A stretch of DNA of 64,000 bases from Lachnospiraceae bacterium (GCA_024699645.1 JAILPE010000112.1:5385-69384); one strand, 5' to 3'. Counted from the stretch's first letter, positions 10,287 through 57,796 are shown. Notes: generated by a model from the letters alone, not told the origin. A program made the numbers and translations.

Positions 10287-10766
10287 ATGTCGGCAGTGAT
10301 CAGAAGGGCAAATGAAAACGATATCGAAGGGATCCTTAAGCTTCTTGTACAGGTTGATATGGTTCACCATAACGGAAGACCGGATATATTTAAAGGACCT
10401 GCGACAAAATATAATTCGGAAGAACTGAAAAGTATTATTGAGAATGATGCTACACCCGTATTTGTGTGCGCTGAAGACGACAAGATCCTGGGTCATGCAT
10501 TTTGCGTACATAAGCAGGTTGTCGGAGATTCGGTTCTTACTGATATACGGACACTCTATATCGATGATATATGCGTTGACGAGGAGTGCAGAGGAAAGCA
10601 TGTTGGAACGAGGCTTTTTGATGCGGTTAAAGAATATGCTCATAAAAACGGTTTTTATAATCTGACATTAAATGTGTGGAGCTGTAATCCCGGAGCGCAG
10701 AAGTTTTACGAGAAACTCGGACTTGTTCCGCAGAAGGTTGGCATGGAGATGCTCATCAACGGATAA
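10287..10766 (+). CDS. GNAT-family N-acetyltransferase
   Basis: 159 aa with acetyl-CoA motif CVDEECRGKHVGTRLF. Confidence 0.8.
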   Translation: MSAVIRRANENDIEGILKLLVQVDMVHHNGRPDIFKGPATKYNSEELKSIIENDATPVFVCAEDDKILGHAFCVHKQVVGDSVLTDIRTLYIDDICVDEECRGKHVGTRLFDAVKEYAHKNGFYNLTLNVWSCNPGAQKFYEKLGLVPQKVGMEMLING

Positions 10767-10841
10767 GGCGGAGGAACGATTGCACGGCTGCACGGCATAA
10801 GCGGTAGATATGAAAACGCTCATCAACGGGCAGAGGCGGAG
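10751..10841. repeat. Diverged direct duplication, period 67-68 bp, covering the stop codons of two convergent genes
   Basis: GCTCATCAACGG occurs at 10751-10762 and 10818-10829. AGGCGGAG occurs at 10766-10773 and 10834-10841. Confidence 0.75.
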
Positions 10842-11635
10842 TCTTTGACGCGTGGAGCGCGGTATTCGTAGTGGATGTATTCGTACTTCGGGAACCTGTC
10901 TACCGTCTTCTTCATTTCGTTATAGAGGCGGTCACGAAGTTCTTTCTTTGCTTCATGACGCGGCAGCGATCTGTCGGCATAGAACGGACCGGAAACGTAA
11001 GAGACGACACTCGGACGTTTAACGAAAGGCAGAAGCCGCTTTTTATAAACATTGGTCATGGTAAAGCACGGAACGTTAAGGTCGTACGGATAAGCCATCG
11101 AGGTGTCCCTGAAAGGTCTGATATCCGTATAGTATGGCCAGATGTGTGCTTCGGGATATATTATAACGGCTTTCTTTTCCTTTATTCTGGTAGCCACTGC
11201 GTTACTGAAACTTCTGGCATGCGCGATATCGGTATAAACAGGAATCGCACCCAGCATCATGACAAAATTACGGATTCCCGGTATTGAAGTGGCATCGGGG
11301 TTGCATATCAGGAAATCTTTTTTGGGGAACGTAAGCAACGAAGGAGTAAAGGCATCGAGGTCGTTTCCCGTATGATTTATATAAACAAAATAACCGGTTT
11401 TCCTGAAAGGACGAAGCTTATACCTTCCGACAAAATGCTGGTGGAATTTGATCTTCACCCAAATAAAGATAAGGGGTCGAACGATAATGTGGTAGATCGT
11501 AAACTCGAAAAACAGCCAGAACGGGTTTCTATGGATATATTTAAAGTCTTTAGGCAGTTTTTTTGTTTTGATCGGAATTGTTGAAAAATCATCATTTATG
11601 GGGTCGGAATAGTAGAATGTATTCTTTTTGCTCAT
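10823..11635 (-). CDS. Lysophospholipid/1-acylglycerol-3-phosphate acyltransferase-family protein (PlsC-like)
   Basis: INHTGNDLDAF (NHxxxxD-type motif) and IIYPEAHIW. There is an N-terminal TM segment. Confidence 0.65.
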   Translation of the reverse strand: MSKKNTFYYSDPINDDFSTIPIKTKKLPKDFKYIHRNPFWLFFEFTIYHIIVRPLIFIWVKIKFHQHFVGRYKLRPFRKTGYFVYINHTGNDLDAFTPSLLTFPKKDFLICNPDATSIPGIRNFVMMLGAIPVYTDIAHARSFSNAVATRIKEKKAVIIYPEAHIWPYYTDIRPFRDTSMAYPYDLNVPCFTMTNVYKKRLLPFVKRPSVVSYVSGPFYADRSLPRHEAKKELRDRLYNEMKKTVDRFPKYEYIHYEYRAPRVKDSASAR

Positions 11636-11695
11636 ACTTTTTTCAACCTCCTTAATGATCTGTGTGCAGTGGGCCTAACAAGATGCAGGGCCTTT

Positions 11696-12838
11696 TTAAT
11701 CGGGTGATACAACATCGCAAAGCATTTGGCGCATTCTCATCATACATTCCTTTTGACTTTCCGCATAAGGGGAAGCGAGATAGCGTTTTGAGTATTCGCG
11801 TCTAATGTCATCGTGTTCGATAAAGAAGTCGATCTTTTCGGCAAGATCACGATAATCGTTACATTTAAAGAGTGAACGCTCATCAAGGGCAAAGGCTTTT
11901 GTCGCACAGCGCGGCGAATTGTTGATCACGGGTACGAGTCCGCAGCTGATAGCTTCGAGACAGGCTATGGCTTCGATCTCAATCTGGGCAGGATGACAAT
12001 AGAGATCCGAATAGTTTATGACACGGGCGAGTTGCTTACGTGTAAAAAACTTCATGATCGGCATCGGGATGCCGGCTTTCCTGACGGCTCTTAAGATCTG
12101 GGACCTTCTCGGACCGCTGCCCGCGAAGATAAGACGGATCTTATCTTTATATTTACTGCATCCGACAGCTTTTACAAGCAGAGTATGAGATTTTTCTTTT
12201 GAATATCTGCCGGTAAAAAGGATCAGAAAGCTGTCTTTGAGGCGGTCGGGCTTTTCGGTGGGAGCATATTTATATGCCTCGTTTACACCGTTTGAGATAA
12301 CAATTCCGTTTGTTTTATGACCCACTGTTTTTTCAAAGAGGTCGCGAATGAACTGTGTAGGGTAGTGGATCATATTTACGTGGCTGTACAGCTTTTTATA
12401 AAAATGTTTATAGACCATCCGGTTAAATCTGTCGGAGTTCATGAACATCAATATGTGACTTGAAAAGTTTTCTGCCTGGCAGTGGAAGCCGGCCGTAACG
12501 GGGATACCAAGCTCCCGGGCTGTTTGTGCAGCACAGTTTCCGACGGGGAAAGGCATCATGATATGCACGACATCCGAACCCGAAACTGCTTCACGGATTA
12601 TTTTTTTATCGGGTTTTGCAATTGTAACATTGTTTTTTTTGACGATTTTGTTTATTATGAAGCCTAAGTTTAAAGGTTTTACTATATAGAAACCTTCTTG
12701 TCCTTCACGGTTTTTGTCGGGGCAGACAACTTTAACGGTGTCACCGCATGACTTGAGATATCTGATAAGATTCATGCATGCTACGGTGGTGCCGTTGTTC
12801 TCCTCCCCAAGAACGTCGGATACGATTGTTACTACCAT
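11696..12838 (-). CDS. Glycosyltransferase family 4 (GT-B), probably glycolipid synthesis
   Basis: 380 aa with a GT-B layout and a C-terminal E-x7-E-like region EIEAIACLEAISCGLVPV. It is co-oriented with the acyltransferase gene. Confidence 0.75.
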   Translation of the reverse strand: MVVTIVSDVLGEENNGTTVACMNLIRYLKSCGDTVKVVCPDKNREGQEGFYIVKPLNLGFIINKIVKKNNVTIAKPDKKIIREAVSGSDVVHIMMPFPVGNCAAQTARELGIPVTAGFHCQAENFSSHILMFMNSDRFNRMVYKHFYKKLYSHVNMIHYPTQFIRDLFEKTVGHKTNGIVISNGVNEAYKYAPTEKPDRLKDSFLILFTGRYSKEKSHTLLVKAVGCSKYKDKIRLIFAGSGPRRSQILRAVRKAGIPMPIMKFFTRKQLARVINYSDLYCHPAQIEIEAIACLEAISCGLVPVINNSPRCATKAFALDERSLFKCNDYRDLAEKIDFFIEHDDIRREYSKRYLASPYAESQKECMMRMRQMLCDVVSPD

Positions 12839-12945
12839 TGGGAAATCCCTCCGAAATAAAAGATTTTGCCGATGGTTCGGACATTTTTAACACATATGAA
12901 CAGTTTATCATATTGTTAAAAATATGCAAATATTTTAAACAATTC

Positions 12946-12974
12946 TTGACATCAACGCGTTAAAGTGCTATAGT
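12946..12974 (+). promoter_or_regulatory. Putative sigma-A promoter of the shikimate operon
   Basis: TTGACA (12946-12951), 17-nt spacer, TATAGT (12969-12974). Confidence 0.55.
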
Positions 12975-13023
12975 GCCATAAAACGGAGATTAAATAAGGA
13001 ATTGAAATCAGGAGGATAGATAT

Positions 13024-14025: not shown

Positions 14026-14061
14026 TCATTAAAGAAACGCATCTTGTGAGGAGGAAGAACG

Positions 14062-19202: not shown

Positions 19203-19649
19203 ATGAAGATACTTGTTATTAACGGACCGAACATAAACATGCTCGGGATCAGAGAACCCGGTATTTACGGAACGCAGGATTATATGTCGCTTCGAAAGCT
19301 CATAGAGGATACAGGCGTTGAGTGCGACATAAACGTTGAAGAATACCAGTCCAATCACGAGGGAGATATCGTTGATAAGATTCAGCATGCGTACGGGCGG
19401 GTTGACGGGATAGTTATAAATCCCGCCGCATATACACATACAAGCGTCGCTATCCTTGATGCTCTCAAGGCTGTTGGGATACCTACGGTTGAGGTTCATA
19501 TCTCGAATGTGTCGGCGCGAGAGGATTTCAGACAGATATCTTATGTGAGACAGTATTGCGTCAAAACCATTTCAGGGCTCGGGATAGAAGGATACAGACA
19601 GGCAATCCTTTACCTTAAGGATCTTATCGAGTTTAAGAGAAGCAAATGA
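19203..19649 (+). CDS. aroQ: Type II 3-dehydroquinate dehydratase
   Basis: MKILVINGPNINMLGIREPGIYG and NPAAYTHTSVA. Confidence 0.95.
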   Translation: MKILVINGPNINMLGIREPGIYGTQDYMSLRKLIEDTGVECDINVEEYQSNHEGDIVDKIQHAYGRVDGIVINPAAYTHTSVAILDALKAVGIPTVEVHISNVSAREDFRQISYVRQYCVKTISGLGIEGYRQAILYLKDLIEFKRSK

Positions 19650-19765
19650 TGTAATGTAAAAAAGCCGACACAGACAGACACAATTTTGCCATCCGGAAGG
19701 TCGAATAAATCATCGGCAGGATGCAAATAGTAGTGTGGAAAAAAATAACCTATTATGATAAAATA

Positions 19766-23324: not shown

Positions 23325-24416
23325 ATGAAGATAATACATGTAGCGGACATACACCTCGACAGCGGTCTTTCGTCAAATTTTGACAAAGACAAAGCGCGGG
23401 AGAGGAAAGCGGAACTGTTGCGTACCTTTGTGAGAATGACCGAATACGCAAATGATAACGGTATAGATGCTGTACTGATCGCCGGAGATCTCTTTGACAG
23501 GGACACAGTATCGGCAACGACAAGAAACGGTGTTATCGGTGCGATCGGATCGACGCCTCAGATCACATATTACTATCTTAAAGGTAATCATGATCGAAAG
23601 GATACTTTCGGATCACTGTCTGAAATTCCCAATAATCTTCGTACATTCGGTGAGACATGGACGTCTTATGCCCTTTCGGACAAGATAAAGCTTTACGGTC
23701 TTGAATTTAACGCTCATAATTCGGCGTCTGCAGCCGATACGCTTGTCACCGACCCGTCAGACATAAACATTGTGATGCTGCACGGGCAGGAGTCGGCTTC
23801 TGCTTCCGACAAGACCGAAGTGATCAATCTCAAATCTTTCCGTAACAGAAATATCGATTATATGGCGCTTGGTCATATACATGCATATAAAAATGCCGAA
23901 CTTGACGCAAGAGGAAGATATTGTTATCCCGGATGCCTTGAAGGAAGAGGCTTTGACGAGAGCGGTGAACATGGATTTGTAGTACTTGATATAGATGAGA
24001 ACGCTCATAAGATCGAGTCCGAGTTTGTTGCATTTGCGTCAAGAAGATTTATAAATGCCGAAGTCGATATAACAGGGCTCGATCAGACAAATCAGATCAT
24101 AAAGGCTGTTTCCGCGAAGCTCGACGAGTGCGATGCAACCACAAATGACTGTGTCAGGGTTGTGCTTGTCGGTAAGACAGATATCGAAGCGGAGAAAAAC
24201 GAAGCAGTGGTCGCGAAAACATTTGAATCCCGGTATTGTCTGTTCAGACTTTACGACGAATCGTCTTTTACGATCGATTACGAAAGCTATGCGGCAGATA
24301 GGTCGCTTAAGGGAGAGTTTATCAGGTCGGTCAAAAACGATCCCACTGTACCCGACGATAAAAAGGCGGAAGCAATCAGATACGGAATCAGAGCACTTCT
24401 GGGGGAGGAATTATGA
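23325..24416 (+). CDS. SbcD/Mre11-type metallophosphoesterase (YhaO-like DNA repair exonuclease)
   Basis: HVADIHLD, GDLFD, GNHD and GHIH motifs. Confidence 0.75.
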   Translation: MKIIHVADIHLDSGLSSNFDKDKARERKAELLRTFVRMTEYANDNGIDAVLIAGDLFDRDTVSATTRNGVIGAIGSTPQITYYYLKGNHDRKDTFGSLSEIPNNLRTFGETWTSYALSDKIKLYGLEFNAHNSASAADTLVTDPSDINIVMLHGQESASASDKTEVINLKSFRNRNIDYMALGHIHAYKNAELDARGRYCYPGCLEGRGFDESGEHGFVVLDIDENAHKIESEFVAFASRRFINAEVDITGLDQTNQIIKAVSAKLDECDATTNDCVRVVLVGKTDIEAEKNEAVVAKTFESRYCLFRLYDESSFTIDYESYAADRSLKGEFIRSVKNDPTVPDDKKAEAIRYGIRALLGEEL

Positions 24417-26764
24417 GGATAATCGAGTGTAACATAATGAATTTCGGTACGCTCTGTGATTTCCATTTTGATTTCTCTGATGGGATAAACAGGATAGTAC
24501 GAGGAAACGGATTCGGAAAAAGTACCCTTGCCGCTTTTATTAGGGTTATGCTGTACGGCTTCGAAGGAGAGGGAAAGCGTGATTCGCTCAGCAGGGAGAG
24601 AAAATTCTATGAACCCTGGCAGGGCGGAAATTACGGTGGTGAAATCGTATTTTCGGTCGGTGAAAAATGCTATCGTGTAACAAGAACTTTCGGTAAAAAG
24701 GCGGATACCGATACATTTGAGCTGAGGGATGTGCGTACAAACCTCGTTGTCAACGATTACAGCGAGCATCTTGGAATAGAACTGTTCGATATGGATTCGG
24801 ATACGTTCAGAAGAACGGTATTTGTCGGACAGGACGGAGTTGAAACATCCGTTAATGATACGATAAACGGAAGGATCGGCGCGCTTGTCGATAACACCGA
24901 CGATCTTGATGCCTTTGAAAAAGCAAAGACCTCTCTGGAGGAAATGATAAATTCACTCACCCCGCGAAGAAAGACGGGTGAGGTAAGCAGATTAAACGAA
25001 CGGATCACAGGCCTTGACGCCGATATCATGCCGGCCTCAGAACTTGAAAAAAGCATGGAAAGCGTACTTGAGATGAGGGAAAAGGAAGACGATAACCTCA
25101 AGCAGCTCAGGGAAGAAAAGAACAGGCTTGCCACCAAAGCAAAAGAGCTTGGCGCATATATGGAGATCGAGACCGGCAAGGAAAGGTACGAAAAGCTGCT
25201 TTCAGATCGCACTGCAAAAGCTGAAGAGCTTGAATCATACAGAAAAGAGCTGCCCGAAGGTATTGACATATCGCGGATACCGGATTCCATGAAACTCAGA
25301 AGCCTTGCACAAAATCACGTAAAGGCCTCGGCCGAGCTTATGAGTACAAAGTACATTGAACTGACGGAACGCGAAGAGGAAAACTATCAGAGGCTCAAAG
25401 CTTTATATGACGGTGAAGACCCTACGGGAAAAGCGGAAGGATATGTTGAAACCTGGAGGGAGATAAAAGAACGCGAAAGAGAGATAACCGAAAAGGAAGA
25501 ATTACGCGTTAAGGCTGAAAAAGAAATGATCCGAGAGACAACGAACGGAAACAGGTACAGGATCGCATGCCTCGCAGTTTCTCTTGTTTTTATTATCGTT
25601 GCAGTTGTATTGTTCGTGACGACGGATGATCCGACTCCCGGATTTGTGACATGCGCGTTCGCAATGTTAGGGGTTATTTTGTCCTTTGTACTTGCAGCGC
25701 CCCATAGGTCGAATGCAAAGCAGCGCGGAAAAGAACGGGATATCTTAAAAAGAGATACGGATATACTAAAGGACAGGAATGAAAGTGACTGCAAAGAGAT
25801 ATCGGCTTTCCTTTCAAAATACAAAAAGGATGTTGAGCCTGATATGATCCCCGTATCGCTTCGGGATATCGTGAACGAACACGAAATATATCTCGGGCTT
25901 GAAAGTAAACGCGAAAGAGCGGTAAATGCTGCGCAGGAAGCCCGTACGGCTGTTGAACAGATCGATCGATTCGTGAGCGAAATGCTCGGGGCCGATATTT
26001 CGGATGATCCCGTCGTAAGACTTCAACATCTTGCGGATATTTCGGACAAGGCAAAGGACGCTTTAAACGCTTATGACCAGATCGTGAATAAAATCTCGGA
26101 TTTTGAGAGAGAAAACGATATAGAAGCCATTAAGAATACGGTAGTTCCAAAAACGGACGAATCACTTTCGGATATCACCGCAAGGCTTAAGGATGTTACG
26201 GAGCTTGAGGATGAATCCGCTAAACGTCTTGCTTTACTCGATAAGCGCAGTGACGAACTGGCACAGAACCTTGATGAGATCTCCTCAAAGAGGGTCGAGA
26301 GAGACAGACTTACGGAGGAAAGGAACGACAAGCTTGAAGCATACGATTCCTGTGTTATCGCCAAGGAGCACCTTATAAGAGCTAAGGAGACGCTTTCGTC
26401 CCGTTACATAAAACCGATCCTCGACAAATTCATGTATTACCATACAATGATAACAGGTCAGAATACACGTGAGTACATGGTTGATGCAAATATAGACGTA
26501 TCAGTAAAAGAACAGGGGATGAACAGGTCTGTCCTGCAGCTGAGCAAGGGTCTGCGGGATGTAGTAGGGCTTTCTCTCAGAATGGCATTTATCGATGTTA
26601 TGTTTCCTCAGGAAAAACCGATCCTCATACTTGACGATCCTTTTGTAAACCTCGACAGGGCAAATCTTGAAGCTGCCGAGAAGCTGATGAGGATAATAGC
26701 TAAGGACTATCAGGTGATATTCTTTGCCGCAAGGGAAGAGACGGAGCAGCAGATAGAGATTTAA
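24413..26764 (+). CDS. SbcC/Rad50-like AAA ATPase (YhaN-like) with a central two-helix membrane hairpin
   Basis: Walker A GNGFGKST, long coiled-coil-type E/K/L-rich arms and C-terminal ILILDDPFVNLD. Hydrophobic stretches IACLAVSLVFIIVAVVLFV and FVTCAFAMLGVILSFVLAA lie mid-protein. ATGA overlap with the upstream gene. Confidence 0.7.
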   Translation: MRIIECNIMNFGTLCDFHFDFSDGINRIVRGNGFGKSTLAAFIRVMLYGFEGEGKRDSLSRERKFYEPWQGGNYGGEIVFSVGEKCYRVTRTFGKKADTDTFELRDVRTNLVVNDYSEHLGIELFDMDSDTFRRTVFVGQDGVETSVNDTINGRIGALVDNTDDLDAFEKAKTSLEEMINSLTPRRKTGEVSRLNERITGLDADIMPASELEKSMESVLEMREKEDDNLKQLREEKNRLATKAKELGAYMEIETGKERYEKLLSDRTAKAEELESYRKELPEGIDISRIPDSMKLRSLAQNHVKASAELMSTKYIELTEREEENYQRLKALYDGEDPTGKAEGYVETWREIKEREREITEKEELRVKAEKEMIRETTNGNRYRIACLAVSLVFIIVAVVLFVTTDDPTPGFVTCAFAMLGVILSFVLAAPHRSNAKQRGKERDILKRDTDILKDRNESDCKEISAFLSKYKKDVEPDMIPVSLRDIVNEHEIYLGLESKRERAVNAAQEARTAVEQIDRFVSEMLGADISDDPVVRLQHLADISDKAKDALNAYDQIVNKISDFERENDIEAIKNTVVPKTDESLSDITARLKDVTELEDESAKRLALLDKRSDELAQNLDEISSKRVERDRLTEERNDKLEAYDSCVIAKEHLIRAKETLSSRYIKPILDKFMYYHTMITGQNTREYMVDANIDVSVKEQGMNRSVLQLSKGLRDVVGLSLRMAFIDVMFPQEKPILILDDPFVNLDRANLEAAEKLMRIIAKDYQVIFFAAREETEQQIEI

Positions 26765-29621: not shown

Positions 29622-30056
29622 ATCGGGATAAATCTCTCCTGTGAATATATTATTCTCAGCGCAACGCTTATGTGGTATTGTATGGGAATAAATAAAATAA
29701 AGCAATCATTAATCCGTATTTCGGTTGCTCAATTTTTGAGATTTGGAAATCTTATTCTTTGTAATGGAAATAATCAGGTTTTGTATAATCGTAAACATTA
29801 TTCAAAGGTTTGCGATACCAACATGGTTCCCATCGCCACAGAGATCATCACCCAGGATCTTACAGGAAAACCTTCACCCATACCGCAGCTTAAGGAAAGA
29901 GACATTCCTTACTACGGCGTAAAAGAAGCTGTATTCCCGTTCAATAATCGATGCCTGATTTTTGAAAACTTTGTAAACGATACCGATTTTGACCAACCGC
30001 TTGATTGTATGGAGAAAGGAGAATAGTATCAGAGTGGCGAGCGGTGAAAACAATAA

Positions 30057-30095
30057 TTGCCCGCTTAACAAGTTTCTCGCCCGCTTAAGGAGTTT
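30057..30095. repeat. Tandem 20-bp repeat, two copies
   Basis: TTGCCCGCTTAACAAGTTT and TCGCCCGCTTAAGGAGTTT. The upstream GGCGAGCGG is partly complementary. Confidence 0.6.
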
Positions 30096-30141
30096 TTATT
30101 GAATAGCAACGTACAAGGGTCCACAACAACAACAGATTGAT

Positions 30142-30543
30142 TTGAATGTACAACTTAGAACTGTGATCAGAAATGCTTTCATAGATATGAATGTAATCCT
30201 TCCAGAAAATGTGTTGGGAGATCTTACTTCGGAGAATCTGCCGGCAGTACTTAAAGAACGTTTTATTACCGGGCGTCTGGAAAACTTAAGGGCGGAAGAG
30301 TTTTCTTTTGATCATGCAATTACAGAACAGGGCGTACAGCAAGAAGTTCCAAGAGATCAGGCGTTGCAGAGGCTTATGGCTGTGATACGTAGTTCGGCGG
30401 ATGTAAATTGCAGAGTGTTGATCCGTTATGCGAATCAATGGGAGATAATAAACGGGAATGATATACAACACTATACGGATGAACAATTGAGAAGAAATGT
30501 AAATTGTAATTGGAGAGTTTTATGGTATAATATCTCTCTGTAA
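30142..30543 (+). CDS. Hypothetical protein (133 aa, TTG start); no family recognised
   Basis: Open frame in a low-GC stretch. No motif was recognised and the RBS is weak. Confidence 0.35.
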   Translation: MNVQLRTVIRNAFIDMNVILPENVLGDLTSENLPAVLKERFITGRLENLRAEEFSFDHAITEQGVQQEVPRDQALQRLMAVIRSSADVNCRVLIRYANQWEIINGNDIQHYTDEQLRRNVNCNWRVLWYNISL

Positions 30544-30553
30544 TGTAATTCAA

Positions 30554-30626
30554 GCACCTGTAGCGAAGAGGATAACGCGCAGTCTTCCGAAGTCTGAGAT
30601 CACAGGTTCGAATCCTGCCAGGTGCG
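30554..30626 (+). tRNA. tRNA-Arg (anticodon CCG), 73 nt, CCA not encoded
   Basis: Hand-folded cloverleaf. The acceptor stem is GCACCTG/CAGGTGC and the anticodon loop is TTCCGAA. U8, A14, G15-C48, U33, the T-loop TTCGAAT and C61 are all present. Non-Watson-Crick pairs are 13-22 A.A, 30-40 U.U and 49-65 A.C. Confidence 0.75.
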
Positions 30627-30640
30627 TTACAATTAAGCCG

Positions 30641-30680
30641 CGGGTGAACACACTGATGTGTTCGCCCGTGATTTATATGA
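30641..30680 (+). terminator. Hairpin after the tRNA (12-bp stem with one G-U pair)
   Basis: CGGGTGAACACA, loop CTGA, TGTGTTCGCCCG, followed by TGATTTATAT. Confidence 0.5.
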
Positions 30681-30755
30681 GCAAGTAGCGGAGCGAATTG
30701 CGAATAACATTGACAAACGGAAATAACAAACGGAGATAATTGTCGGAGGTTGATT

Positions 30756-31871
30756 ATGCCTTTTTTCTTCATGATGGTTGTAGCGTTTATGCTCGTTTTT
30801 TTATCATTCTCGGCAGCGTTTTATCTGAAGCTCGTTCCAAAGAAGCTTCCCTTAAGGATCGCTACCGTGGCGGGCATGGTTCTAATAAATATCGGAACCA
30901 TTTATTTTATGGTAAACGCCTCTTCGGAATCTGACGGATTTCTGTTCAGATCGGGAATGTTTTTTGCAACGATATGTTTTATAATAAACATATACAGCGC
31001 AGTATTCTTTGTGATATCACTTTTGATCCGGATCGTTTTCAGGATTATCGGTAAAAAGGAAAACAAGGTGCCTGAATTTTTGCGAGGAAAGCTGTACAGG
31101 CTCTGCGTCCTTGGTTTTACGTTCCTGCTTGCTATTGTCGGATATATCAATATGTCCGTTGTTCATGTATATGATTACGAGGTCTTGACGGATAAGCTTG
31201 CGAGCGGAGAAGAATACTCATTTGCGGTAATAACGGATCTTCATCTTTCAACAGGTATATATGCCGGCAGGGTTGATGACCTTTTTGAAAAGATAAACGA
31301 AACAAATGCCGATGCTGTACTGTTTGTCGGTGATATAGCCGATAATAAAACGTCTCGGGGAGCGTATGACGCTCTTTCCGAGGGACTTAAGGATCTGAAA
31401 TGTCCGCTCGGAGCCTTTTATGTAGACGGCAATCATGACGGAACCGGTAAGTCGGATATGCGTGTGATAATGAAAAATGCCGGGGTAACCGTTCTTTCGG
31501 ATGAAAAATATGAGCTTACTCCCGAGATCACAATCTACGGAAGAAACGATCCGAGGTCATTCAGAAACGGAAAAACAAAGATACCGACAGACCTTTCGTC
31601 TGATGACTTTAACCTTATTATGACACATCAGCCCGTAAATCTTGCGGAATTTGCGGCTGCGGGAGGAGATCTCTCGGTGAGTGGTCATACGCATGGAGAA
31701 CAGTTTCCTCTCATGTATCCGATAATCGCGGCATCTAATGATGCTGTAATGGGACATGATGAGATCGACGGCATGGACGTTATTGTAAGCCGCGGCGTCG
31801 GCGGATGGGGACTACACTTTTCTTTCCCGTCAACGAAGGAAATTGCACTCGTGCATGTTATCGGGAAATGA
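30756..31871 (+). CDS. Membrane-anchored metallophosphoesterase (YkuE-like)
   Basis: N-terminal TM helices, then ITDLHL, GDIAD, GNHD and GHTHGEQ. RBS GGAGG lies 6 nt upstream of the ATG at 30756. Confidence 0.8.
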   Translation: MPFFFMMVVAFMLVFLSFSAAFYLKLVPKKLPLRIATVAGMVLINIGTIYFMVNASSESDGFLFRSGMFFATICFIINIYSAVFFVISLLIRIVFRIIGKKENKVPEFLRGKLYRLCVLGFTFLLAIVGYINMSVVHVYDYEVLTDKLASGEEYSFAVITDLHLSTGIYAGRVDDLFEKINETNADAVLFVGDIADNKTSRGAYDALSEGLKDLKCPLGAFYVDGNHDGTGKSDMRVIMKNAGVTVLSDEKYELTPEITIYGRNDPRSFRNGKTKIPTDLSSDDFNLIMTHQPVNLAEFAAAGGDLSVSGHTHGEQFPLMYPIIAASNDAVMGHDEIDGMDVIVSRGVGGWGLHFSFPSTKEIALVHVIGK

Positions 31872-31960
31872 CATGGAACAATTGTAGATTCGCTCACGTA
31901 TAAGCGGGAAATGACATGGAACAATTGTAGATTTGCTCACGTATAAGCGGGAAATGATCG
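31862..31960. repeat. Tandem repeat, 43-bp period, about 2.3 copies, starting in the last codons of the metallophosphoesterase gene
   Basis: CGGGAAATGA recurs at 31862, 31905 and 31948. The two full units differ at one base (C/T). Confidence 0.95.
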
Positions 31961-31984: not shown

Positions 31985-32872
31985 ATGGCGGATAATCAGT
32001 TGAGTCTTAGGACTTCGGACCTGTTTATTGTTCCGATATCTTGTATTGAGCTTGAAAGACGCGCGGGGAGCGGGGATCTCTTTGAAGAGGGAACTTCGAC
32101 AGACCCGGAAGAAAAACCGGTAACTTCGGGAGTGATGGCTCGGGTCGATCCTCTCGCGGGAGAAAGCTTCTTTTTCGGAGGAAGCGTTTCGGACAATTCG
32201 GACAGGACAGAACGACGGTATTTAAAGAGTGAACTGTGTGCCGATATTTTTCGTGCCTGCAGTGACGACGACGATCCCGACTTTGTCTGGTATACCGTTT
32301 GGAGGGTGAGCCTTCGTGCAAATCCCAAAGAACTCGTCGGACTTTTCAGGTTCCTCGGACCGCAAAAAAAAGGCAGGGTCGGGTTCGAGCTTATCATCTA
32401 TGAAGATTACAGACATTTGGGATATGGTCATCAGCTTATTGATAAGATGACTGTGTTCGCCTTTGATAAGAGTGATGTTTATTATCTGTATTCAAACATC
32501 CACGGAAATGAGGATCCTGTCGAATATGAAAGAGTTTTAAGGCGCAGCGGATACAAAACAGAAGAGGAAGTATTAAATCCTTTTGAGGCGGATAGAATTA
32601 TACCCGAAGACGAAGAACTCTTAAAAAAGCGTGCATTACCCGAATACTTACTTAAAGAGTCAGGTGTAACTTCTTATTCGGCGGCATATGTGATGATAGG
32701 TCTTTGCGCCGGTATGTTTATAAGCATCATAACAGGTCTCATGCTCGAGGGGCTTGCATGCGGTCTCGTTTTTTCGACTGTCTGGGGAGCAATCATGGAT
32801 CATTTTGAGCTCAAACACAGGAGAAGGATACTTGGAGGGGACGGGCCAAAGAAACAGGTTGAGGATGCCTGA
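31985..32872 (+). CDS. GNAT-like acetyltransferase domain protein with a C-terminal two-helix membrane anchor
   Basis: The IIYEDYRHLGYGHQLI motif is GNAT-like. The C-terminus AAYVMIGLCAGMFISIITGLMLEGLACGLVFSTVWGAIM is hydrophobic. RBS AGGAGGG. Confidence 0.5.
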   Translation: MADNQLSLRTSDLFIVPISCIELERRAGSGDLFEEGTSTDPEEKPVTSGVMARVDPLAGESFFFGGSVSDNSDRTERRYLKSELCADIFRACSDDDDPDFVWYTVWRVSLRANPKELVGLFRFLGPQKKGRVGFELIIYEDYRHLGYGHQLIDKMTVFAFDKSDVYYLYSNIHGNEDPVEYERVLRRSGYKTEEEVLNPFEADRIIPEDEELLKKRALPEYLLKESGVTSYSAAYVMIGLCAGMFISIITGLMLEGLACGLVFSTVWGAIMDHFELKHRRRILGGDGPKKQVEDA

Positions 32873-32894
32873 AGGGGACGAACCAAAGAAACAG
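32835..32894. repeat. Direct duplication, period 37 bp, at the 3' end of the GNAT-like gene
   Basis: GGGGACGGGCCAAAGAAACAG (32837-32857) and GGGGACGAACCAAAGAAACAG (32874-32894) match at 19 of 21 positions. The second copy starts just after the stop codon. Confidence 0.85.
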
Positions 32895-32925: not shown

Positions 32926-33363
32926 ATGCAGTTTACAACTTTACAAAAAGACATGATGCAGGCGATGAAGGATCATAACAAGGTAAAAAAGGATGCGCTT
33001 TCGGCACTTGTGTCGGCTACAAAAAAGCTTGCGATAGACGCCGGATGCCGTGATGACATACCTGACGAAATGACCGATCAGGCGATCCTCAAAGAGATCA
33101 AAAGCATCAAGGAGCAGATAGACACATGTCCCGATTCACGAGCAGAGCTTAAGGAAGAGTATACGGCAAGGCTTAACGTGTTTGAGGAATATGCCCCGAA
33201 GATGCTCTCGGCAGAAGAAATCGAGAAGATAATCAGAGAGAAGTTCGCCGATGTGATCGCATCCGGAAACAAGGGAATGGTCATGAAGGCAGTTATGGGC
33301 GAATTAAAGGGAAAAGCAGAAGGCAAGCTTATCAATGAAACTGTTGCCAAGATCATGGCTTAA
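32926..33363 (+). CDS. GatB/YqeY domain protein
   Basis: 145 aa. The N-terminus LQKDMMQAMKDHNKVKKDALSALVSA is typical of YqeY. Confidence 0.85.
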   Translation: MQFTTLQKDMMQAMKDHNKVKKDALSALVSATKKLAIDAGCRDDIPDEMTDQAILKEIKSIKEQIDTCPDSRAELKEEYTARLNVFEEYAPKMLSAEEIEKIIREKFADVIASGNKGMVMKAVMGELKGKAEGKLINETVAKIMA

Positions 33364-33406
33364 GTGAAGACAGACAGCAGGATCCGCTGCCGGGTTCATG
33401 GCTTAA
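33341..33406. repeat. Direct duplication, period 43 bp, of the yqeY-like gene 3' end including the stop codon
   Basis: TCATGGCTTAA occurs at 33353-33363 and 33396-33406. The flanking 12 nt are partly conserved. Confidence 0.7.
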
Positions 33407-38090: not shown

Positions 38091-38211
38091 TTCCTTAAAT
38101 CCTCCTGTCTGCACATTATGTATAGTTACACAGGGATGTGCAGATATATGTTTTTTGTCCTGTTTATACGGTTTAGTTCTAAAATAACGGGTACGAGACC
38201 GGGCCGGTAAT

Positions 38212-40014: not shown

Positions 40015-40028
40015 CTTTATATGGGCTC

Positions 40029-40125
40029 CTTTATCGTATGCCTTGATACAGTATCATTATAGGCTGCTTTATCATATGCCTTGATACAGTATCATTTTAG
40101 GCAGCTTTATCATTATCATATTCCT
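40029..40125. repeat. Tandem repeat, 38-bp period, about 2.6 copies, in the 5' leader/promoter region of the ABC exporter operon
   Basis: CTTTATC(G/A)TATGCCTTGATACAGTATCATT(A/T)TAGGC starts at 40029, 40067 and 40105. The minus-strand copy nearest the gene carries the RBS AAAGGAG. Confidence 0.95.
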
Positions 40126-40317: not shown

Positions 40318-40692
40318 ATGGAACAGAAGTTTTACAGATGCGAACATTGCGGAAACATCATCGCTATGGTTAAGAATTCGGGGGTACCCGTTGTGTGTTG
40401 CGGCGAAAAAATGAAGGAGATCGTTCCCGGCACGGTTGACGCTTCTCTTGAAAAGCATGTACCCAAGTATGAGATCAAAGACAATATCGTTTATGTTACG
40501 GTTGGTGCGGTAGAGCATCCCATGGGCGAAGATCATCTGATCGAGTGGATATCGATCCAGACAAGCGCAGGAAATCAGCGCAAGGTATTAAAGGCAGGCG
40601 GCGCTCCCAAGGCTTGCTTCGCTATCTGCGAGGGTGAGAAGGTTGAGGCGGTTTACGCGTACTGCAATCTTCACGGACTTTGGAAGGCATGA
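40318..40692 (+). CDS. dfx: Desulfoferrodoxin (2Fe superoxide reductase)
   Basis: N-terminal desulforedoxin Cys4 (CEHCGN...CCGE). C-terminal SOR site (EKHVP, EHPM, CNLHGLW). Confidence 0.9.
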   Translation: MEQKFYRCEHCGNIIAMVKNSGVPVVCCGEKMKEIVPGTVDASLEKHVPKYEIKDNIVYVTVGAVEHPMGEDHLIEWISIQTSAGNQRKVLKAGGAPKACFAICEGEKVEAVYAYCNLHGLWKA

Positions 40693-40749
40693 ATGACCGA
40701 ACGGTTCACGGTTTGAGCGGTGCTTTTGAAGGCATGAATGACCGAAGGT
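40670..40749. repeat. Direct duplication (period 35-45 bp with an indel) spanning the dfx stop codon
   Basis: GAAGGCATGAATGACCGAA occurs at 40683-40701 and again, identical, at 40728-40746. TTCACGG occurs at 40670 and 40705. Confidence 0.9.
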
Positions 40750-40772
40750 ACCGAATTTTACACAAAAATAAC

Positions 40773-40810
40773 AACAGCCGGGTGTTTACTGCATCCGGCT
40801 GTTATATTTG
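40773..40810 (+). terminator. Hairpin terminator after dfx
   Basis: AACAGCCGG (40773-40781) pairs with CCGGCTGTT (40795-40803). The T-tract is weak. Confidence 0.5.
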
Positions 40811-40884
40811 GTCATACATGGCAAAGCTCATCCGAAACGAATACTATAAGGCGTGCGGATATTTGCCGTTTTCCAAATAAATAG

Positions 40885-40940
40885 AAGAGAAAGTCCGACA
40901 ACATTAGGGATCGGCTTTTTCTCTTCCGTTGTTTTTCTTT
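40885..40940 (+). terminator. Second, imperfect hairpin plus T-run with no annotated gene in front of it
   Basis: GAAGAGAA..CCGA (40885-40898) pairs with TCGG..TTCTCTTC (40911-40926), followed by CGTTGTTTTTCTTTATTTT. Confidence 0.4.
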
Positions 40941-41030
40941 ATTTTAGCCGTCGATTATGTTAGATTTATGACAGAAAAAAGAAAGTTTGAAGTCATTTTG
41001 CCTTAAATCACGGAATGGATAAACATTGAT

Positions 41031-42227
41031 ATGAATAAAGTGATATACCTTGATAATGCTGCAACTACGCGGATCTGCGATGAAGCGCTCGAAGAGATGA
41101 TGCCCTTTTTGAAAGAGGAATTTGCGTCACCTTTAGGGCAATATTCTTCCGGGTTTAATTCAAATGCTGCTTTGGTGACTGCCGGTAAACGGGCGGCAGG
41201 GCTTATAGGCGCCGACCGTAGCGAGATCATATTTACTTCTTCGGGTACGGAAAGTGACAATCTCTTCATCCGCGGCTCGGTGCTTGCACATTTGAGGAAA
41301 CAGGAAAACAGGTTCGGTTCGGACGAAGAAACTGTGATCGTAACCTCCGTTACGGAACATGCTGCGGTGCTTAAAACTTGTGAGGACCTCGCTCTTACAT
41401 ATGATAAGATAAGACTGATAAAGGTGCCTGTTGACAGTGAAGGAAAGATCGATATGAACGCCTATACGTCGGCTCTCAAAAATCAACCTTTCCTTGTCAG
41501 TATCATGCAGGTGAACAATGAAACGGGCGCTGTAAATGACATAGGCATGCTCTGTGATATGGCACACCGCGTGGGGGCACTTTTTCATACGGATGCCGTG
41601 CAGTCAGTTCCGCATATGCGCGTTGACGTCAAGAGTCTCGGGGTTGACGGACTTTCTGTTTCGGGACACAAGCTTCACGGTCCCAAAGGGTCCGGATTTC
41701 TATACATAAAGAGAGGGATAAAGGTGCTTCCGATCATCACGGGTGGCGGTCAGGAGAGAGGAATGAGATCGGGAACGCCCGATGTGAGCGGTATCGTAGG
41801 ACTCGGAAAGGCGTGTGAGGTATTGTCGGTCAGTGGGTACGCAGACGATGCCGCTGCCGAAGCGGCGAGGGTGTTCGAAAAGAAGATCCGTGAACTTATG
41901 CCGTTTGCAATGGTAAACAGACCCGGTCAACTCTATGTCAGCGAGATAGTTTCGGTAAGTATCCCGGGGGGAGATTCGCTTTCGTTCCTGCCCGATCTTG
42001 ATATGGCCGGAATATGCTGCTCGGCGGGCGCTGCCTGCAGTGCCGGTAAAGAGGGCGTTTCACACGTGCTTAAAGCTATGGGGATGAATGACGGAACGGC
42101 AAAAGGGACTCTGAGGTTTTCTTTTTCGCGTTACAATACATGTGAAGAGGCCGCTGAGGCTGCGGAACGTGTATGCAAAGTAATAACTGAGAATCTCCGC
42201 CGTCACGGACTAAAGAATGAACAATGA
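41031..42227 (+). CDS. Cysteine desulfurase (NifS/IscS class V aminotransferase)
   Basis: YLDNAATT, PLP lysine SGHKLHGPKG and active-site loop CSAGAACS. Confidence 0.9.
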   Translation: MNKVIYLDNAATTRICDEALEEMMPFLKEEFASPLGQYSSGFNSNAALVTAGKRAAGLIGADRSEIIFTSSGTESDNLFIRGSVLAHLRKQENRFGSDEETVIVTSVTEHAAVLKTCEDLALTYDKIRLIKVPVDSEGKIDMNAYTSALKNQPFLVSIMQVNNETGAVNDIGMLCDMAHRVGALFHTDAVQSVPHMRVDVKSLGVDGLSVSGHKLHGPKGSGFLYIKRGIKVLPIITGGGQERGMRSGTPDVSGIVGLGKACEVLSVSGYADDAAAEAARVFEKKIRELMPFAMVNRPGQLYVSEIVSVSIPGGDSLSFLPDLDMAGICCSAGAACSAGKEGVSHVLKAMGMNDGTAKGTLRFSFSRYNTCEEAAEAAERVCKVITENLRRHGLKNEQ

Positions 42228-42290
42228 ATCTGCACCGTCACGGACTAAGGAATGAACAATGAACTTCCGTCGTCACGGATTGTAGGGAGT
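42195..42290. repeat. Tandem repeat, 35-bp period, about 2.6 copies, spanning the cysteine desulfurase stop codon
   Basis: CCGTCACGGACTAA(A/G)GAATGAACAATGAA occurs at 42200-42228 and 42235-42263. A degenerate third copy starts at 42270. Confidence 0.95.
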
Positions 42291-43202: not shown

Positions 43203-43267
43203 GCGCGGGCAGCGGACGAAATGCCCGGCTGAATCATCCGGCTGCGGGCAGCGGACGGAATACTCGG
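43203..43267. repeat. Direct duplication, period 39 bp, in the PHP/rqcH intergenic region
   Basis: GCGGGCAGCGGACGAAAT (43205-43222) and GCGGGCAGCGGACGGAAT (43244-43261). Confidence 0.85.
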
Positions 43268-48188: not shown

Positions 48189-48203
48189 TCCCGCTGGGGA
48201 GAG

Positions 48204-48290
48204 AGGTATAACAGGTACCTGTAACGGGTGCCGTCCGGAGACGAAAACAAAGGAAATAGGTATAACAGGTACCGTCCGTATTCGAAAGTA
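48204..48290. repeat. Diverged direct duplication, period about 54 bp with an indel, after the permease genes
   Basis: AGGTATAACAGGTACC occurs at 48204-48219 and 48258-48273. CGTCCG...CGAAA...AAGGAA follows both copies. Confidence 0.8.
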
Positions 48291-51024: not shown

Positions 51025-51060
51025 CAGAATAAGGAAAATGTTTCAATAGAGGAGGTTTTT

Positions 51061-51483: not shown

Positions 51484-51643
51484 TTTGTAATTAAACATGG
51501 ATAAAGTACGGGCTTTTTACGAAAGACATTCCCCCGATTGGCCGAGTAGTGATTTATAAGATAATTTGTTGTTGCAATTAAGAGCGCTGTATGATAAAAT
51601 CCATGTGTTTGATGCTAATTTTACAAAGAAGAGAGGTGTCGAT

Positions 51644-51853: not shown

Positions 51854-51862
51854 TGATAATCG

Positions 51863-51900
51863 GGGCTACTGTAAATATAGGCAGTAGCCCTATTATTGTA
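51863..51900 (+). terminator. Hairpin after rpmB
   Basis: GGGCTACTG (51863-51871) pairs with CAGTAGCCC (51882-51890), followed by TATTATTGTATT. Confidence 0.55.
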
Positions 51901-51925
51901 TTATAAAAGGAAAGAAGGTGCTCTT

Positions 51926-52282: not shown

Positions 52283-52364
52283 GTTTGAATGAGCCTTTAT
52301 ATACATGAGAAATACAATAATGAGTGCGATCAAAGGTTGCATTCATTAAGGAGGAATCATTAAA

Positions 52365-54050: not shown

Positions 54051-54081
54051 TCATAAAAATGAATAATACAGGAGGGTAACT

Positions 54082-54456
54082 ATGGGAAGCGACAAAAAGA
54101 CTATTTTGATCATTGATGATATGGCAACTATCCTTGAACACGCAAAACAGATCCTTAAGGATTCCTATAAGGTTATTCCCTGTACGAGCGGGAAACAGGG
54201 CCTTGAGATATTTGACAAGATGAAACCCGATCTGGTCCTTGTTGATATCAATATGCCCGATATGGACGGCTTTCAGGTGTTGTCCGAGATCAGGTCGAGG
54301 GAAACAGGCAGGGAAGTGCCGGTCATCATGATGACCACGGGATTGACTAATGATATAGAATCTGAGGGATTCAGGGCCGGTGTAGATGATTTCCTTATCA
54401 AGCCTTTTTCGCAGCCCGCGGTCCTTAAAAGGGTTTCAATGCAGCTTGATAAATGA
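54082..54456 (+). CDS. Single-domain response regulator (CheY-like receiver)
   Basis: ILIIDD, the phospho-acceptor context LVLVDINMPDMDG, and K in LIKPF. Confidence 0.85.
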   Translation: MGSDKKTILIIDDMATILEHAKQILKDSYKVIPCTSGKQGLEIFDKMKPDLVLVDINMPDMDGFQVLSEIRSRETGREVPVIMMTTGLTNDIESEGFRAGVDDFLIKPFSQPAVLKRVSMQLDK

Positions 54457-54541
54457 GAGATCGTCTCAGTATCACACTGTTAAATGAGTAGTGTCTCGGT
54501 ATCATCCCGATAAACGAGAAACGCCCGGTATTACCCGACGG
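54450..54541. repeat. Three tandem copies (31/30/31 bp) making up the whole convergent intergenic spacer and both stop codons
   Basis: TAAATGAGAGATCGTCTCAGTATCAC, TAAATGAGTAGTGTCTCGGTATCATC and TAAACGAGAAACGCCCGGTATTACC start at 54450, 54481 and 54511. Confidence 0.85.
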
Positions 54542-55463: not shown

Positions 55464-55618
55464 TTCAGGCTCCTTGATGTTTAATACCATATATGATTAT
55501 AATTATTTACATATTAGTTTTCAAGAAAAACACGATTCGTACACAATTGGAACACAAAATCGGAATACAATGTTATCGTCATCGAAAAAGATAAAGTGTT
55601 TTTAGTCAGAGGTGCATC

Positions 55619-56827
55619 ATGAAAAAGATTTTAAAACTTTCATTATTTGCCGTATTAAGCGGTGTGATCATTTTTGTCGGAATAAAACTGGTCGGTTCCG
55701 CCCTTAACAGAATAGAAAAAATATCAAGAGAAAATGAAATGGTTGTCGAGTCCGATGACACTGTATATGCGTCAGACAGTTCGGATCCCATAGAACAAAG
55801 GGTTAACAACCCCAATAACGATGCCAAACCGATTAGTGCAGTCTCATATGAGGATGTATCGGCGATAGTGGATGCTGTAATGCCGGCCGTTGTTTCTATA
55901 GATTGTACGGTTCCTGTTGAAGAATATAATATTTTCGGTGGAATGACGACATACATTCAAAAAACAAGCGGAAGCGGATTCATCGTTTCGCAGAGCAACA
56001 AGCAGTTATTTATCTGTACAAATGAGCACGTGATTAAAGGTGCATCCACAGTATCGATCAGTTTTTGCAACGATTACGTTGCGGACGCAATGGTTGTCGG
56101 ATATGACACAAGCTATGATCTTGCCATCGTCAGTGTTGACATCTCCAAGATCGATAAAAATACACTTTCGGTTATCAAGGTGGCATCGATAGGAAATTCG
56201 GATGACATCAAGATCGGAGACATAAACATTGCGATCGGTAATTCTCTCGGCCACGGACAGGCGGTTACGGTCGGATACATAAGCGCTAAAGACAGAACGA
56301 TAAATGTTGACGGTATACAGTCGAGACCGCTTCTTCAGACAGATGCTGCCATAAATCCCGGAAACAGCGGAGGACCGTTGCTTGATATATACGGCCGCGT
56401 AATCGGTATCAATTGTGCCAAGTATTCGGGAGTGTTGATAGAAGGTATCGGATACGCGATCCCGATCAATAATGTTGTTGCCACGATCAATGAATTGATA
56501 AACAGTTTCAGTATAGCTGAAGGCGAGGAAGGAAGGATCGCTATCCTCGGAAAAGATGTTTCCGAAGGATATTCAAAAGGTTTTTCGATGCCGATGGGAG
56601 TTTATGTTTTCGGTATCGAGGAAGGATCAAGGGCTTCCGAATCGGGACTTATGGTCGGAGATATCATCACTATGGTAAACGGACAGGAAATCCTTTCTTT
56701 CGATTATCTGTCGGAACGCGTGGGACACTATAAAGCAGGTACATCTGTAACACTCACGGTCATGAGACATCAGAAGAATAAATATGTTGAAGTTGAGATA
56801 AACGTGGTGCTTGATACTCTTGAATAA
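55619..56827 (+). CDS. htrA: HtrA/DegP-family serine protease with PDZ domain
   Basis: N-terminal TM anchor, TNEHV His, D in YDLAIV, GNSGGPL Ser, and a C-terminal PDZ domain. Confidence 0.9.
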   Translation: MKKILKLSLFAVLSGVIIFVGIKLVGSALNRIEKISRENEMVVESDDTVYASDSSDPIEQRVNNPNNDAKPISAVSYEDVSAIVDAVMPAVVSIDCTVPVEEYNIFGGMTTYIQKTSGSGFIVSQSNKQLFICTNEHVIKGASTVSISFCNDYVADAMVVGYDTSYDLAIVSVDISKIDKNTLSVIKVASIGNSDDIKIGDINIAIGNSLGHGQAVTVGYISAKDRTINVDGIQSRPLLQTDAAINPGNSGGPLLDIYGRVIGINCAKYSGVLIEGIGYAIPINNVVATINELINSFSIAEGEEGRIAILGKDVSEGYSKGFSMPMGVYVFGIEEGSRASESGLMVGDIITMVNGQEILSFDYLSERVGHYKAGTSVTLTVMRHQKNKYVEVEINVVLDTLE

Positions 56828-56850
56828 ATTAACAACATAATATATACTTT

Positions 56851-56889
56851 TACGGTGTGGGACCATTTTGGTACACACCGTATTTTATT
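56851..56889 (+). terminator. Rho-independent terminator after htrA
   Basis: TACGGTGTG (56851-56859) pairs with CACACCGTA (56874-56882), followed by TTTTATT. Confidence 0.7.
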
Positions 56890-56918
56890 ACATGTATTCG
56901 TGATATACGGAGAATTTG

Positions 56919-57767
56919 ATGCGAAAAGGTAATTTTGAAAAAAAGAAGATTTTTCTTGCTATTACGGCGATTGCGAGTATGATCGTTCTTGGGATCGTGG
57001 TGGCAAAGGTTGTCTCTTATTCCGTCGATATGTATTCCTCGAGAAAAAAAGTGGAGGAACTCAGTGAGAAGATCGGAGAGGCAACGATCTATCTTGATAC
57101 AGATGCCGAGACCGGAAGACCTGTCGCATACAGGAGCGTTGAAAAGGAAGAAGACAAGGTTGAAACGGAGAAACCGAAGACTGTCAGTGAAAAATATAAG
57201 GAACTGTACGATCTGAACAGCGATCTGGCCGGTTGGATAAGCATTGAGGATACAAGAGTCAATCTTCCCGTTATGCAGACGGTTTTTGATGAACAATTTT
57301 ACCTTGACAAGAATTTTGATAAAGAAGAGGACAGAGCAGGTCTGCCGTTTATTGATTACAGGTGTGATATTAACGACAGGAGCACAAATATCATCATATA
57401 CGGTCATAATATGAAAAACGGTGATATGTTCCATGACCTTTTGCTTTATGATGATAAAAAATTCTTTGAAGATCACCGGTATATCAGGTTTGATACGATA
57501 TACGAAGAAGCAATATACGAGATAGTCGCTGTTTTCAGATCAAAAGTCATGTATATGACGGATGATTCGTTCAAATTTTATAATTTTATAGAAGCTGACG
57601 ACTCAGAGGATCTTACGGATTATCTTGATACAATAAAAGGGATGAGCCTGTATCCCATAGAAGTTTCGGAAGGACTGAGCGATGAACTGATAACACTTTC
57701 AACCTGTGAGTATTCCGAAGAAGACGGCAGGTTTGTTGTAGTTGCAAGAAGAGTTGAAACAAAGTAA
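56919..57767 (+). CDS. srtB: Class B sortase
   Basis: N-terminal TM helix, IIIYGHNMKNGDMF (His) and TLSTCEY (Cys). Confidence 0.85.
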   Translation: MRKGNFEKKKIFLAITAIASMIVLGIVVAKVVSYSVDMYSSRKKVEELSEKIGEATIYLDTDAETGRPVAYRSVEKEEDKVETEKPKTVSEKYKELYDLNSDLAGWISIEDTRVNLPVMQTVFDEQFYLDKNFDKEEDRAGLPFIDYRCDINDRSTNIIIYGHNMKNGDMFHDLLLYDDKKFFEDHRYIRFDTIYEEAIYEIVAVFRSKVMYMTDDSFKFYNFIEADDSEDLTDYLDTIKGMSLYPIEVSEGLSDELITLSTCEYSEEDGRFVVVARRVETK

Positions 57768-57796
57768 AGAATTTTGAAAGAGTTGAAAGAGCATAA
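57749..57796. repeat. Direct duplication, period 29 bp, of the srtB 3' end
   Basis: AAGAGTTGAAA occurs at 57749-57759 and 57778-57788. Both copies end in ..TAA 6 nt later. Confidence 0.65.

Follow-up and report, generated by a model that had tools for sequence, protein, structure and literature searches.

The DNA analysed here is a 64 kb window of a rumen Lachnospiraceae metagenome-assembled genome (MAG; GCA_024699645.1), and our subject is a set of short tandem duplications in the spacers between its genes. The + strand carries most of the genes, the GC skew is positive across the whole window and the GC content is 41–50%. A preliminary description had counted at least 12 such duplications in roughly 45 intergenic regions. 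We took the 45 spacers of at least 25 nt as our set and found a local direct or tandem repeat at all 12 of the listed loci. The copies lie head to tail and are derived from adjoining sequence, as judged by three search methods and by a gapped reading of the loci at 40667, 48198 and 54449. The pattern is that of a blind duplication process filtered by purifying selection, and the window is an unusually dense new instance of a known mutation product, not a new system.

Repeats were located using Tandem Repeats Finder (TRF), a direct-repeat search, our own ungapped scan (offsets of 15–100 nt, scoring +1/-2, with a score of at least 15 called strong) and reading of the sequence by eye (54449-54541). 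Each spacer was then compared with 200 dinucleotide shuffles. All 12 loci reach p<=0.035; nine of the 45 spacers reach p<=0.01 where 0.45 are expected, and 14 reach p<=0.05 where 2.25 are expected, the 12 listed loci all being among these 14. Seven loci are strong (31862, 32825, 40020, 40678, 42191, 43205 and 48204) and five are weak (10736, 30057, 33345, 54450 and 57749). The ungapped scan returned seven matches in spacers or gene ends with a score of at least 15, plus one low-complexity coding repeat at 58514. TRF, which it had been suggested should be run, reports clean arrays at 31862-31957 (43 nt, 2.2 copies, 98%), 40020-40113 (38 nt, 2.5 copies, 91%) and 42191-42279 (35 nt, 2.5 copies, 85%). 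Since TRF alone gives only these 3 intergenic arrays of period 15–100 in the window, the count of 12 rests on accepting partial or decayed copies. The direct-repeat search adds 32817/32854 (37 nt, 78%), 10736/10803 (27 nt at 67), 40678/40723 (24 nt at 45, 96%), 43205/43244 (24 nt at 39, 88%), 48198/48252 (22 nt at 54, 91%), 33345/33388 (19 nt at 43, 84%) and 57745/57800. On a gapped reading, the seemingly partial repeats at 40667-40750 and 48198-48290 are true tandem duplications with later indels. Copy identity spans 98% down to about 70%, in keeping with the earlier view that the events differ in age. That the units share no sequence was likewise borne out: a blastn comparison of every region with all of the window gave local copies only. 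The loci are as follows.

10736..10829 (+): weak 27-nt direct repeat at 67-nt spacing, 78% identical (p=0.01); copy 1 is the GNAT gene end with its TAA (10764-66), copy 2 covers the stop of the convergent acyltransferase gene (10823-25), and an 8-nt repeat in two copies is nested at 10781-96.
30047..30090 (+): weak repeat of 20-nt period, TTGCCCGCTTAAcaaGTTTc / TCGCCCGCTTAAggaGTTTt (p=0.025).
30713..30739 (+): 13-nt tandem duplication, 2.1 copies, running from the tRNA-Arg terminator to the metallophosphoesterase start; absent from the preliminary list.
31862..31957 (+): 43-nt unit, 2.2 copies with 1 mismatch, arranged A-X-A-X-A, where A is CGGGAAATGA, the metallophosphoesterase end with its TGA, and X is 33 nt.
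32817..32890 (+): 37-nt unit in two copies (78%) at the 3' end of a 300-aa gene, with the stop (32870-72) in copy 2.
33345..33406 (+): YqeY gene end with its TAA, echoed 43 nt downstream (16/19; p=0.015).
40020..40125 (-): 38-nt unit, 2.5-2.8 copies (91-92%), immediately upstream of where the ABC transporter gene begins (ATG 40014-40012, on the minus strand); within the unit are the ribosome-binding site (RBS) of that gene and apparently also its first codons, and in the distal copies the RBS is decayed (AAAGGAG to AAAGCAG).
40667..40750 (+): tandem duplication of ~35-45 nt of the desulfoferrodoxin gene end with its TGA (40690-92); copy 2 has a 10-nt indel.
42177..42281 (+): 35-nt unit in three copies, the later ones 77% and 69% identical to copy 1, which consists of the final 35 nt of the cysteine desulfurase gene; the TGA is formed across the junction of copies 1 and 2.
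43205..43267 (+): 24-nt repeat at 39-nt spacing (88%), entirely within the spacer between the PHP and RqcH genes.
48198..48290 (+): duplication of 54-nt period with a 22-nt core (91%), entirely within its spacer; a 13-nt duplication, TATAACAGGTACC / TGTAACGGGTGCC, is nested.
54449..54541 (+): three ~31-nt units between convergent genes (p=0.03); unit 1 retains the response regulator TGA and unit 3 the stop of the SH3 protein gene (minus strand).
57745..57819 (+): sortase gene end with its TAA, echoed as AGAGTTGAAACAAAGTAA / AGAGTTGAAAGAGCATAA at period 29, plus a 9-nt repeat in two copies (p=0.035).

The stop codon lies inside the first copy at 31862 (31869-71), 33345 (33361-63), 40678 (40690-92), 54449 (54454-56), 57745 (57765-67) and 10736 (10764-66). 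To this extent the earlier reading of the first copies stands, as does its account of the convergent junction at 10751; at 42191 the TGA sits at the junction between copies. Duplication is not limited to stops: at 40020 the RBS and 5' end of a minus-strand gene were duplicated, at 54450 the two facing ends of a convergent pair, and 43205 and 48204 are spacer-only. This variety of boundary types is as a blind process predicts.

The direction of the events was judged by comparison with relatives, each sampled at about 7–50 kb. Neither the contig collections searched nor a set of 5.8 billion proteins yielded any conspecific sequence, and the best metagenome YqeY matches are 86% identical and not syntenic with the window. 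Homologues of three window proteins led to a sister genome, GCA_024693545.1 (contigs L161, L162 and L164), which is perfectly syntenic with the window over 19.7-64 kb at protein identities of 57–98%. A third relative (L163) has an HtrA-like protease 78% identical to that of the window, L165 is a more distant outgroup, and L167-L169 are three farther relatives. None of the window duplications at covered junctions is present in the syntenic sister contigs, including the 13-nt duplication at 30713..30739, which is not in L164. At eight of the nine listed junctions covered by L161 and L162 the window spacer is longer by about the duplicated length; at 43205 the difference is only 6 nt. Spacer lengths are given below, negative values denoting overlap.

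YqeY to EF-G-like gene: window 101 nt, sister 62 nt.
ABC transporter and desulfoferrodoxin genes, divergent: window 303 nt, sister 222 nt.
Desulfoferrodoxin to nifS-like gene: window 338 nt, sister 272 nt.
nifS-like to PHP gene (42191): window 106 nt, sister 19 nt.
Before the 449-aa gene (48204): window 121 nt, sister 30 nt.
Response regulator and SH3 genes, convergent (54450): window 74 nt, L162 -4 nt, L163 5 nt.
Sortase to 311-aa gene (57749): window 80 nt, L162 -8 nt, L163 21 nt.

The repeats at 54450 and 57749 are not in L163 either, and in the outgroup L165 the genes overlap or abut at these junctions (-11, -1, -8 and +1 nt). The duplication at 40667..40750 is a 65-nt insertion relative to the sister. 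At the 31862 junction the sister contig stops 23 nt past the stop codon, and the L165 genes overlap there. The cysteine desulfurase C-terminus is at the same position as in homologues, and the in-gene copy must therefore be the ancestral gene end. Because the covered junctions of the relatives have no echoes and their genes often abut or overlap, the window copies there are derived insertions that lengthened the spacers, and the earlier proposal that duplicated gene ends had in part built the spacers is upheld. A recognisable local duplication is present in 7 of the 10 window spacer gains of at least 30 nt. Turnover runs both ways, the sister spacer being the longer at eight junctions. The further proposal that the proteins are left unchanged is correct insofar as the outer copies keep both genes intact, but not at 32825, where the C-terminal tail is altered because the stop lies in copy 2 (it ends ...PKKQVEDA in the window and ...KKNQES in the sister).

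Other differences between these genomes were seen at spacers. Two ABC transporter genes are 97 nt apart in the window (38115-38211), whereas their sister orthologues overlap by 1 nt; the upstream ABC protein is ~21 aa shorter at its C-terminus, and the spacer holds an inverted repeat, CTGCACAT...ATGTGCAG, with no duplication detected. The spacer between fakA and the response regulator gene is 31 nt in the window (54051-54081) versus 136 nt in L162 (8310-8445) and 180 nt in L163 (863-1042), and a promoter-like block common to the latter two, AAATGCAAAGAGTTATTGCAT...GATATAATG, is lost from the window. A tRNA-Arg(CCG) gene lies at 30554-30626 (region 29706-30749), accompanied by a terminator and a promoter-like block that is conserved. 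On its upstream side the window has ~690 nt that are absent from the sister; this stretch includes the weak repeat at 30047..30090 and an orphan 133-aa open reading frame (ORF) at 30142-30543 that has no Pfam match.

To place the density of these events in context, three control sets were used: 80 loci of other Clostridia genomes (drawn from relatives of a window EF-G/NYN protein that are 73-74% identical among the matches listed), 47 metagenome loci with a YqeY 74-86% identical, and 33 with one 66-71% identical. A repeat scoring at least 15 is present in 7 of 45 window spacers (15.6%) compared with 23 of 1175 control spacers (2.0%; Fisher odds ratio 9.2, p=6e-5), and there are 1.0 matches per kb of intergenic DNA in the window versus 0.20, 0.20 and 0.03 in the three sets. 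The density is thus unusually high, as first claimed. It is not special to the window genome, however. Four of 32 spacers are strong in the near relatives (sister contigs, L163 and L165), a rate similar to that of the window (p=0.75), and none of 29 in L167-L169; window and near relatives together differ from the broad controls with an odds ratio of 8.3 (p=2e-6). The near relatives carry gene-end echoes at other places. At L164 6703-6805 the final ~45 nt of sbcC and its TAA are repeated in a 63-nt echo (38/40 identical), which is not in the window; at L163 853-930 a 17-nt unit that takes in the fakA end and TGA is present in 4.5 copies; and L165 19515-19606 has two copies of a 46-nt unit in the spacer between the desulfoferrodoxin and nifS-like genes, upstream of the latter. 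These are independent events of the same kind as those of the window, and because the near relatives' rate is similar, the excess belongs to a small clade and not to the window genome alone.

Behind this excess could be a higher duplication rate, deletion that is slower or weaker, or less selection on spacers to stay compact. It is conceivable, if rather doubtful, that in the clade (the window MAG, GCA_024693545.1 and the L163 and L165 genomes) tandem duplication of 15-70 nt runs at a heritable rate several times the usual, with the events possibly concentrated in certain zones of the chromosome and an altered replication or repair function as the cause. SbcCD is encoded in the window (23325-26764), so that this hairpin nuclease, at least, has not been lost.

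The periods of the repeats bear on how they were selected. Only three of the 12 listed loci have a period divisible by 3. Among control TRF arrays of period 15-100, divisibility by 3 is found in 75/88, 33/34 and 22/22 coding arrays (130/144 in total) and in 23/50 intergenic arrays (about 40-48% by set), and in all control sets repeat matches per kb are about 5-6 times denser in spacers than in coding DNA. The absence of frame preference in spacers, together with the multiple-of-3 bias in coding arrays, fits slippage or microhomology duplication under purifying selection. We consider it probable that the repeats are neutral or nearly neutral local tandem duplications of 7-70 nt made by replication slippage or microhomology-mediated template switching. 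Duplication followed by a selection filter had been the core of the original interpretation, and both the derived insertions and the period pattern support it.

Duplications have arisen independently at many junctions, probably by slipped-strand mispairing or microhomology-mediated tandem duplication, and have survived only where the outer copies of the array preserve the end or start of both neighbouring genes. Where a stop is spanned, the upstream copy remains as the intact gene end; where a start is spanned, as at 40020, the downstream copy is the intact one; and where a whole convergent junction was duplicated, as at 54450, each gene end is kept in an outer copy. The ancestral spacers were probably only -8 to about 60 nt long and the units 30-55 (to 60) nt, such that nearly every tolerated event would include a gene boundary. 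With ancestral spacers this short, overlap with a stop or start is close to unavoidable and no targeting of stop codons is needed. The expected outcome is a gene end that still works, with a non-coding echo behind it. Substitutions, small indels and further duplication nested inside the echoes have since eroded them, and the spacers have grown. In the DNA sampled, detectable events of this sort are about 8-fold commoner in the window genome and its nearest relatives than in the other Clostridia. The 31862 array (2x43+10 nt) carries a 10-nt extra copy of CGGGAAATGA and is consistent with the form MH-X-MH-X-MH, where MH is the microhomology; it is the sole locus where this is readable.

Several points weigh against this account. 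The older loci are too decayed for microhomology at the original junctions to be read, and at 31862 the A-X-A-X-A arrangement needs a pre-existing 10-nt repeat or an earlier insertion, the 33-nt X having no detectable source. The excess by TRF only is 1.6-4-fold, not significant and based on 3 arrays. The rates cover 64 kb of the window genome and the sampled portion of each relative, not whole genomes, and the source is a MAG judged from assembled sequence alone. Finally, seven strong events within 10 consecutive spacers (p~1e-4) form a cluster that uniform slippage with selection does not predict.

It is this clustering that recommends a regional mutational episode or hot zone, in which error-prone repair, recombination-dependent synthesis over about 16 kb or a lineage mutator would have made the strong events together. 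All seven strong duplications lie in the 10 consecutive spacers between 31.8 and 48.3 kb (permutation p 6.5e-5; length-weighted 1.3e-4), and the sister genome has none across the same stretch. However, copy identities from 98% to below 80% argue against a single burst, weaker events occur outside the zone (10736, 54450 and 57749), the relatives' events are at other places, and neither composition nor identity to the sister is anomalous across 31.8-48.3 kb, all of which makes such an episode unlikely. Another reading is assembly error in the MAG: three window proteins have 100% matches to a single NCBI MAG contig only, and the 43-nt array, with copies 98% identical, could have been assembled with the wrong number of units. 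Most copies, though, are 4-30% diverged and contain indels, which assemblers do not create, and the periods (29-67 nt) track no k-mer size; k-mer-sized artefacts are ruled out by these variable periods and diverged copies. Similar echoes also occur in L163, L164 and L165, three assemblies made independently by other projects, and we regard artefact as highly improbable.

The repeats might instead be functional cis-elements kept by selection, such as regulator sites, RNA structures, terminators or backup stops. The 40020 unit holds a palindrome, TGATACtGTATCA, and its region folds better than shuffles (z=-3.0), as does 54440-54535 (z=-2.2), and several units contain small hairpins. On the other hand, no motif is common to the loci, 8 of 10 regions fold no better than shuffles (z -1.1 to +0.9), nothing in the window except the tRNA passes an Rfam gathering threshold, the echoes are missing at the orthologous junction in every relative covering it, and the echo copies decay, as does the RBS at 40020. 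A structured RNA or intrinsic terminator was rejected on the folding and Rfam results and because no terminator lies inside a unit, bar weak hairpins; duplication of a promoter or terminator was rejected because promoter scans scored no better than shuffles and none of the terminators falls on a repeat unit. From the sequence, a function for the repeats is unlikely, and their maintenance as cis-elements very unlikely. The same array that suits template switching, 31862, could be read as the footprint of an enzyme-driven insertion (a mobile element target-site duplication, or ectopic integration of a CRISPR-type spacer), with the 10-nt duplicated gene end flanking 33 nt of untraced origin. Against this, the length that was duplicated ranges between 7 and 67 nt, whole units and not flanks alone are repeated (40020, 42191, 40667 and 48198), the loci have neither common termini nor inverted repeats and no neighbouring cas or transposase gene, and X is found nowhere else in the window, where blastn likewise gave no distant template for any inserted segment. 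Variable lengths and whole-unit duplication rule out CRISPR-like or transposon footprints, and insertion of any enzyme-driven kind seems scarcely credible.

No described mechanism had been known to the authors of the preliminary description, but slipped-strand mispairing and microhomology-mediated duplication are documented (PMC8639346; PMC3635867). Microhomology-mediated tandem duplications have been reported as subclonal, reversible events in yeast that are far rarer in E. coli, and those that would shift the frame are depleted from essential coding sequence (PMC8639346). The window events resemble these in being head-to-tail copies of adjacent sequence, tens of nt long and independent at each locus, in being depleted where a reading frame would break, and in the form of the 2x43+10 array at 31862, two units with a short piece added, as expected of an MH-X-MH-X-MH product. 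They differ in being fixed and partly decayed, in belonging to a gut anaerobe, in their unusual density per spacer, and in that microhomology is readable at one locus only. Bacterial minisatellites or variable-number tandem repeat loci in operon spacers are also well known (PMC3635867). Like the window loci, these have tandem units of 10-100 bp, mostly in operon intergenic spacers, that touch flanking stop or start codons; unlike them, the window loci have low copy numbers (2-3). Tandem units touching the flanking stop and start codons in operon spacers are also said to characterise the mycobacterial MIRUs, reportedly described by Supply et al. in 1997. The units of MIRUs are related from locus to locus and form one dispersed family, whereas in the window the unit is particular to each locus and derives from the gene beside it. 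REP/BIME, MITE and CRISPR elements are likewise short repeats in intergenic DNA, but the window loci have no common sequence, palindromic family consensus or terminal inverted repeats, and no constant repeat with variable spacers as in CRISPR. A dispersed family (REP, MITE or MIRU-like) is ruled out by units that are unrelated between loci and match only locally, and a CRISPR array by repetition of the whole unit in only 2-3 copies; no Cas domain was found in Pfam scans of 20 genes flanking the loci. The initial exclusion of REP, MITE and CRISPR was thus well founded.

Some further features of the window were recorded. The + strand gene at 33465-36239 encodes a 924-aa protein in which a complete EF-G-like GTPase (GTP_EFTU, EFG_III, IV and C) is followed by a C-terminal NYN_YacP nuclease-type domain, a fusion with at least 579 relatives across Clostridia. 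In the noncoding DNA that precedes the cysteine desulfurase gene, window (40805-41030) and sister (L161 8190-8446) are nearly identical, and L165 (~19620-19740) largely retains it, although the flanking proteins are only 74-98% identical. This DNA contains a possible 20-aa ORF (40818-40880; MAKLIRNEYYKACGYLPFSK) and a strong hairpin with a T-rich run after it, and matches no Rfam family. The gene at 57848-58783, which adjoins the sortase gene, encodes a 311-aa protein with no Pfam match. It has in-frame repeats at 58432-58590 (six copies of the 9-nt GAAGAGGAA and two of a 39-nt unit) encoding E-rich/PTKA-like tracts, and its sister orthologue has an A-rich repeat of its own at the 3' end (L162 13131-13185).

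For practical purposes, the echoes can mislead the annotation of gene ends and start codons, and the younger ones could serve as strain markers; the event at 31862 is the youngest. More broadly, these junctions allow spacer growth in a compact bacterial genome to be seen directly: duplication of a junction parts abutting or overlapping genes, one of which is preserved by each outer copy. The excess in the clade, if genome-wide, would point to a lineage-specific mutational signature, for which a genetic cause could be looked for. A raised-rate process, if it exists, would steadily un-overlap and part genes, making spacer DNA from gene ends, and the altered replication or repair function behind it would be traceable by comparing gene content.

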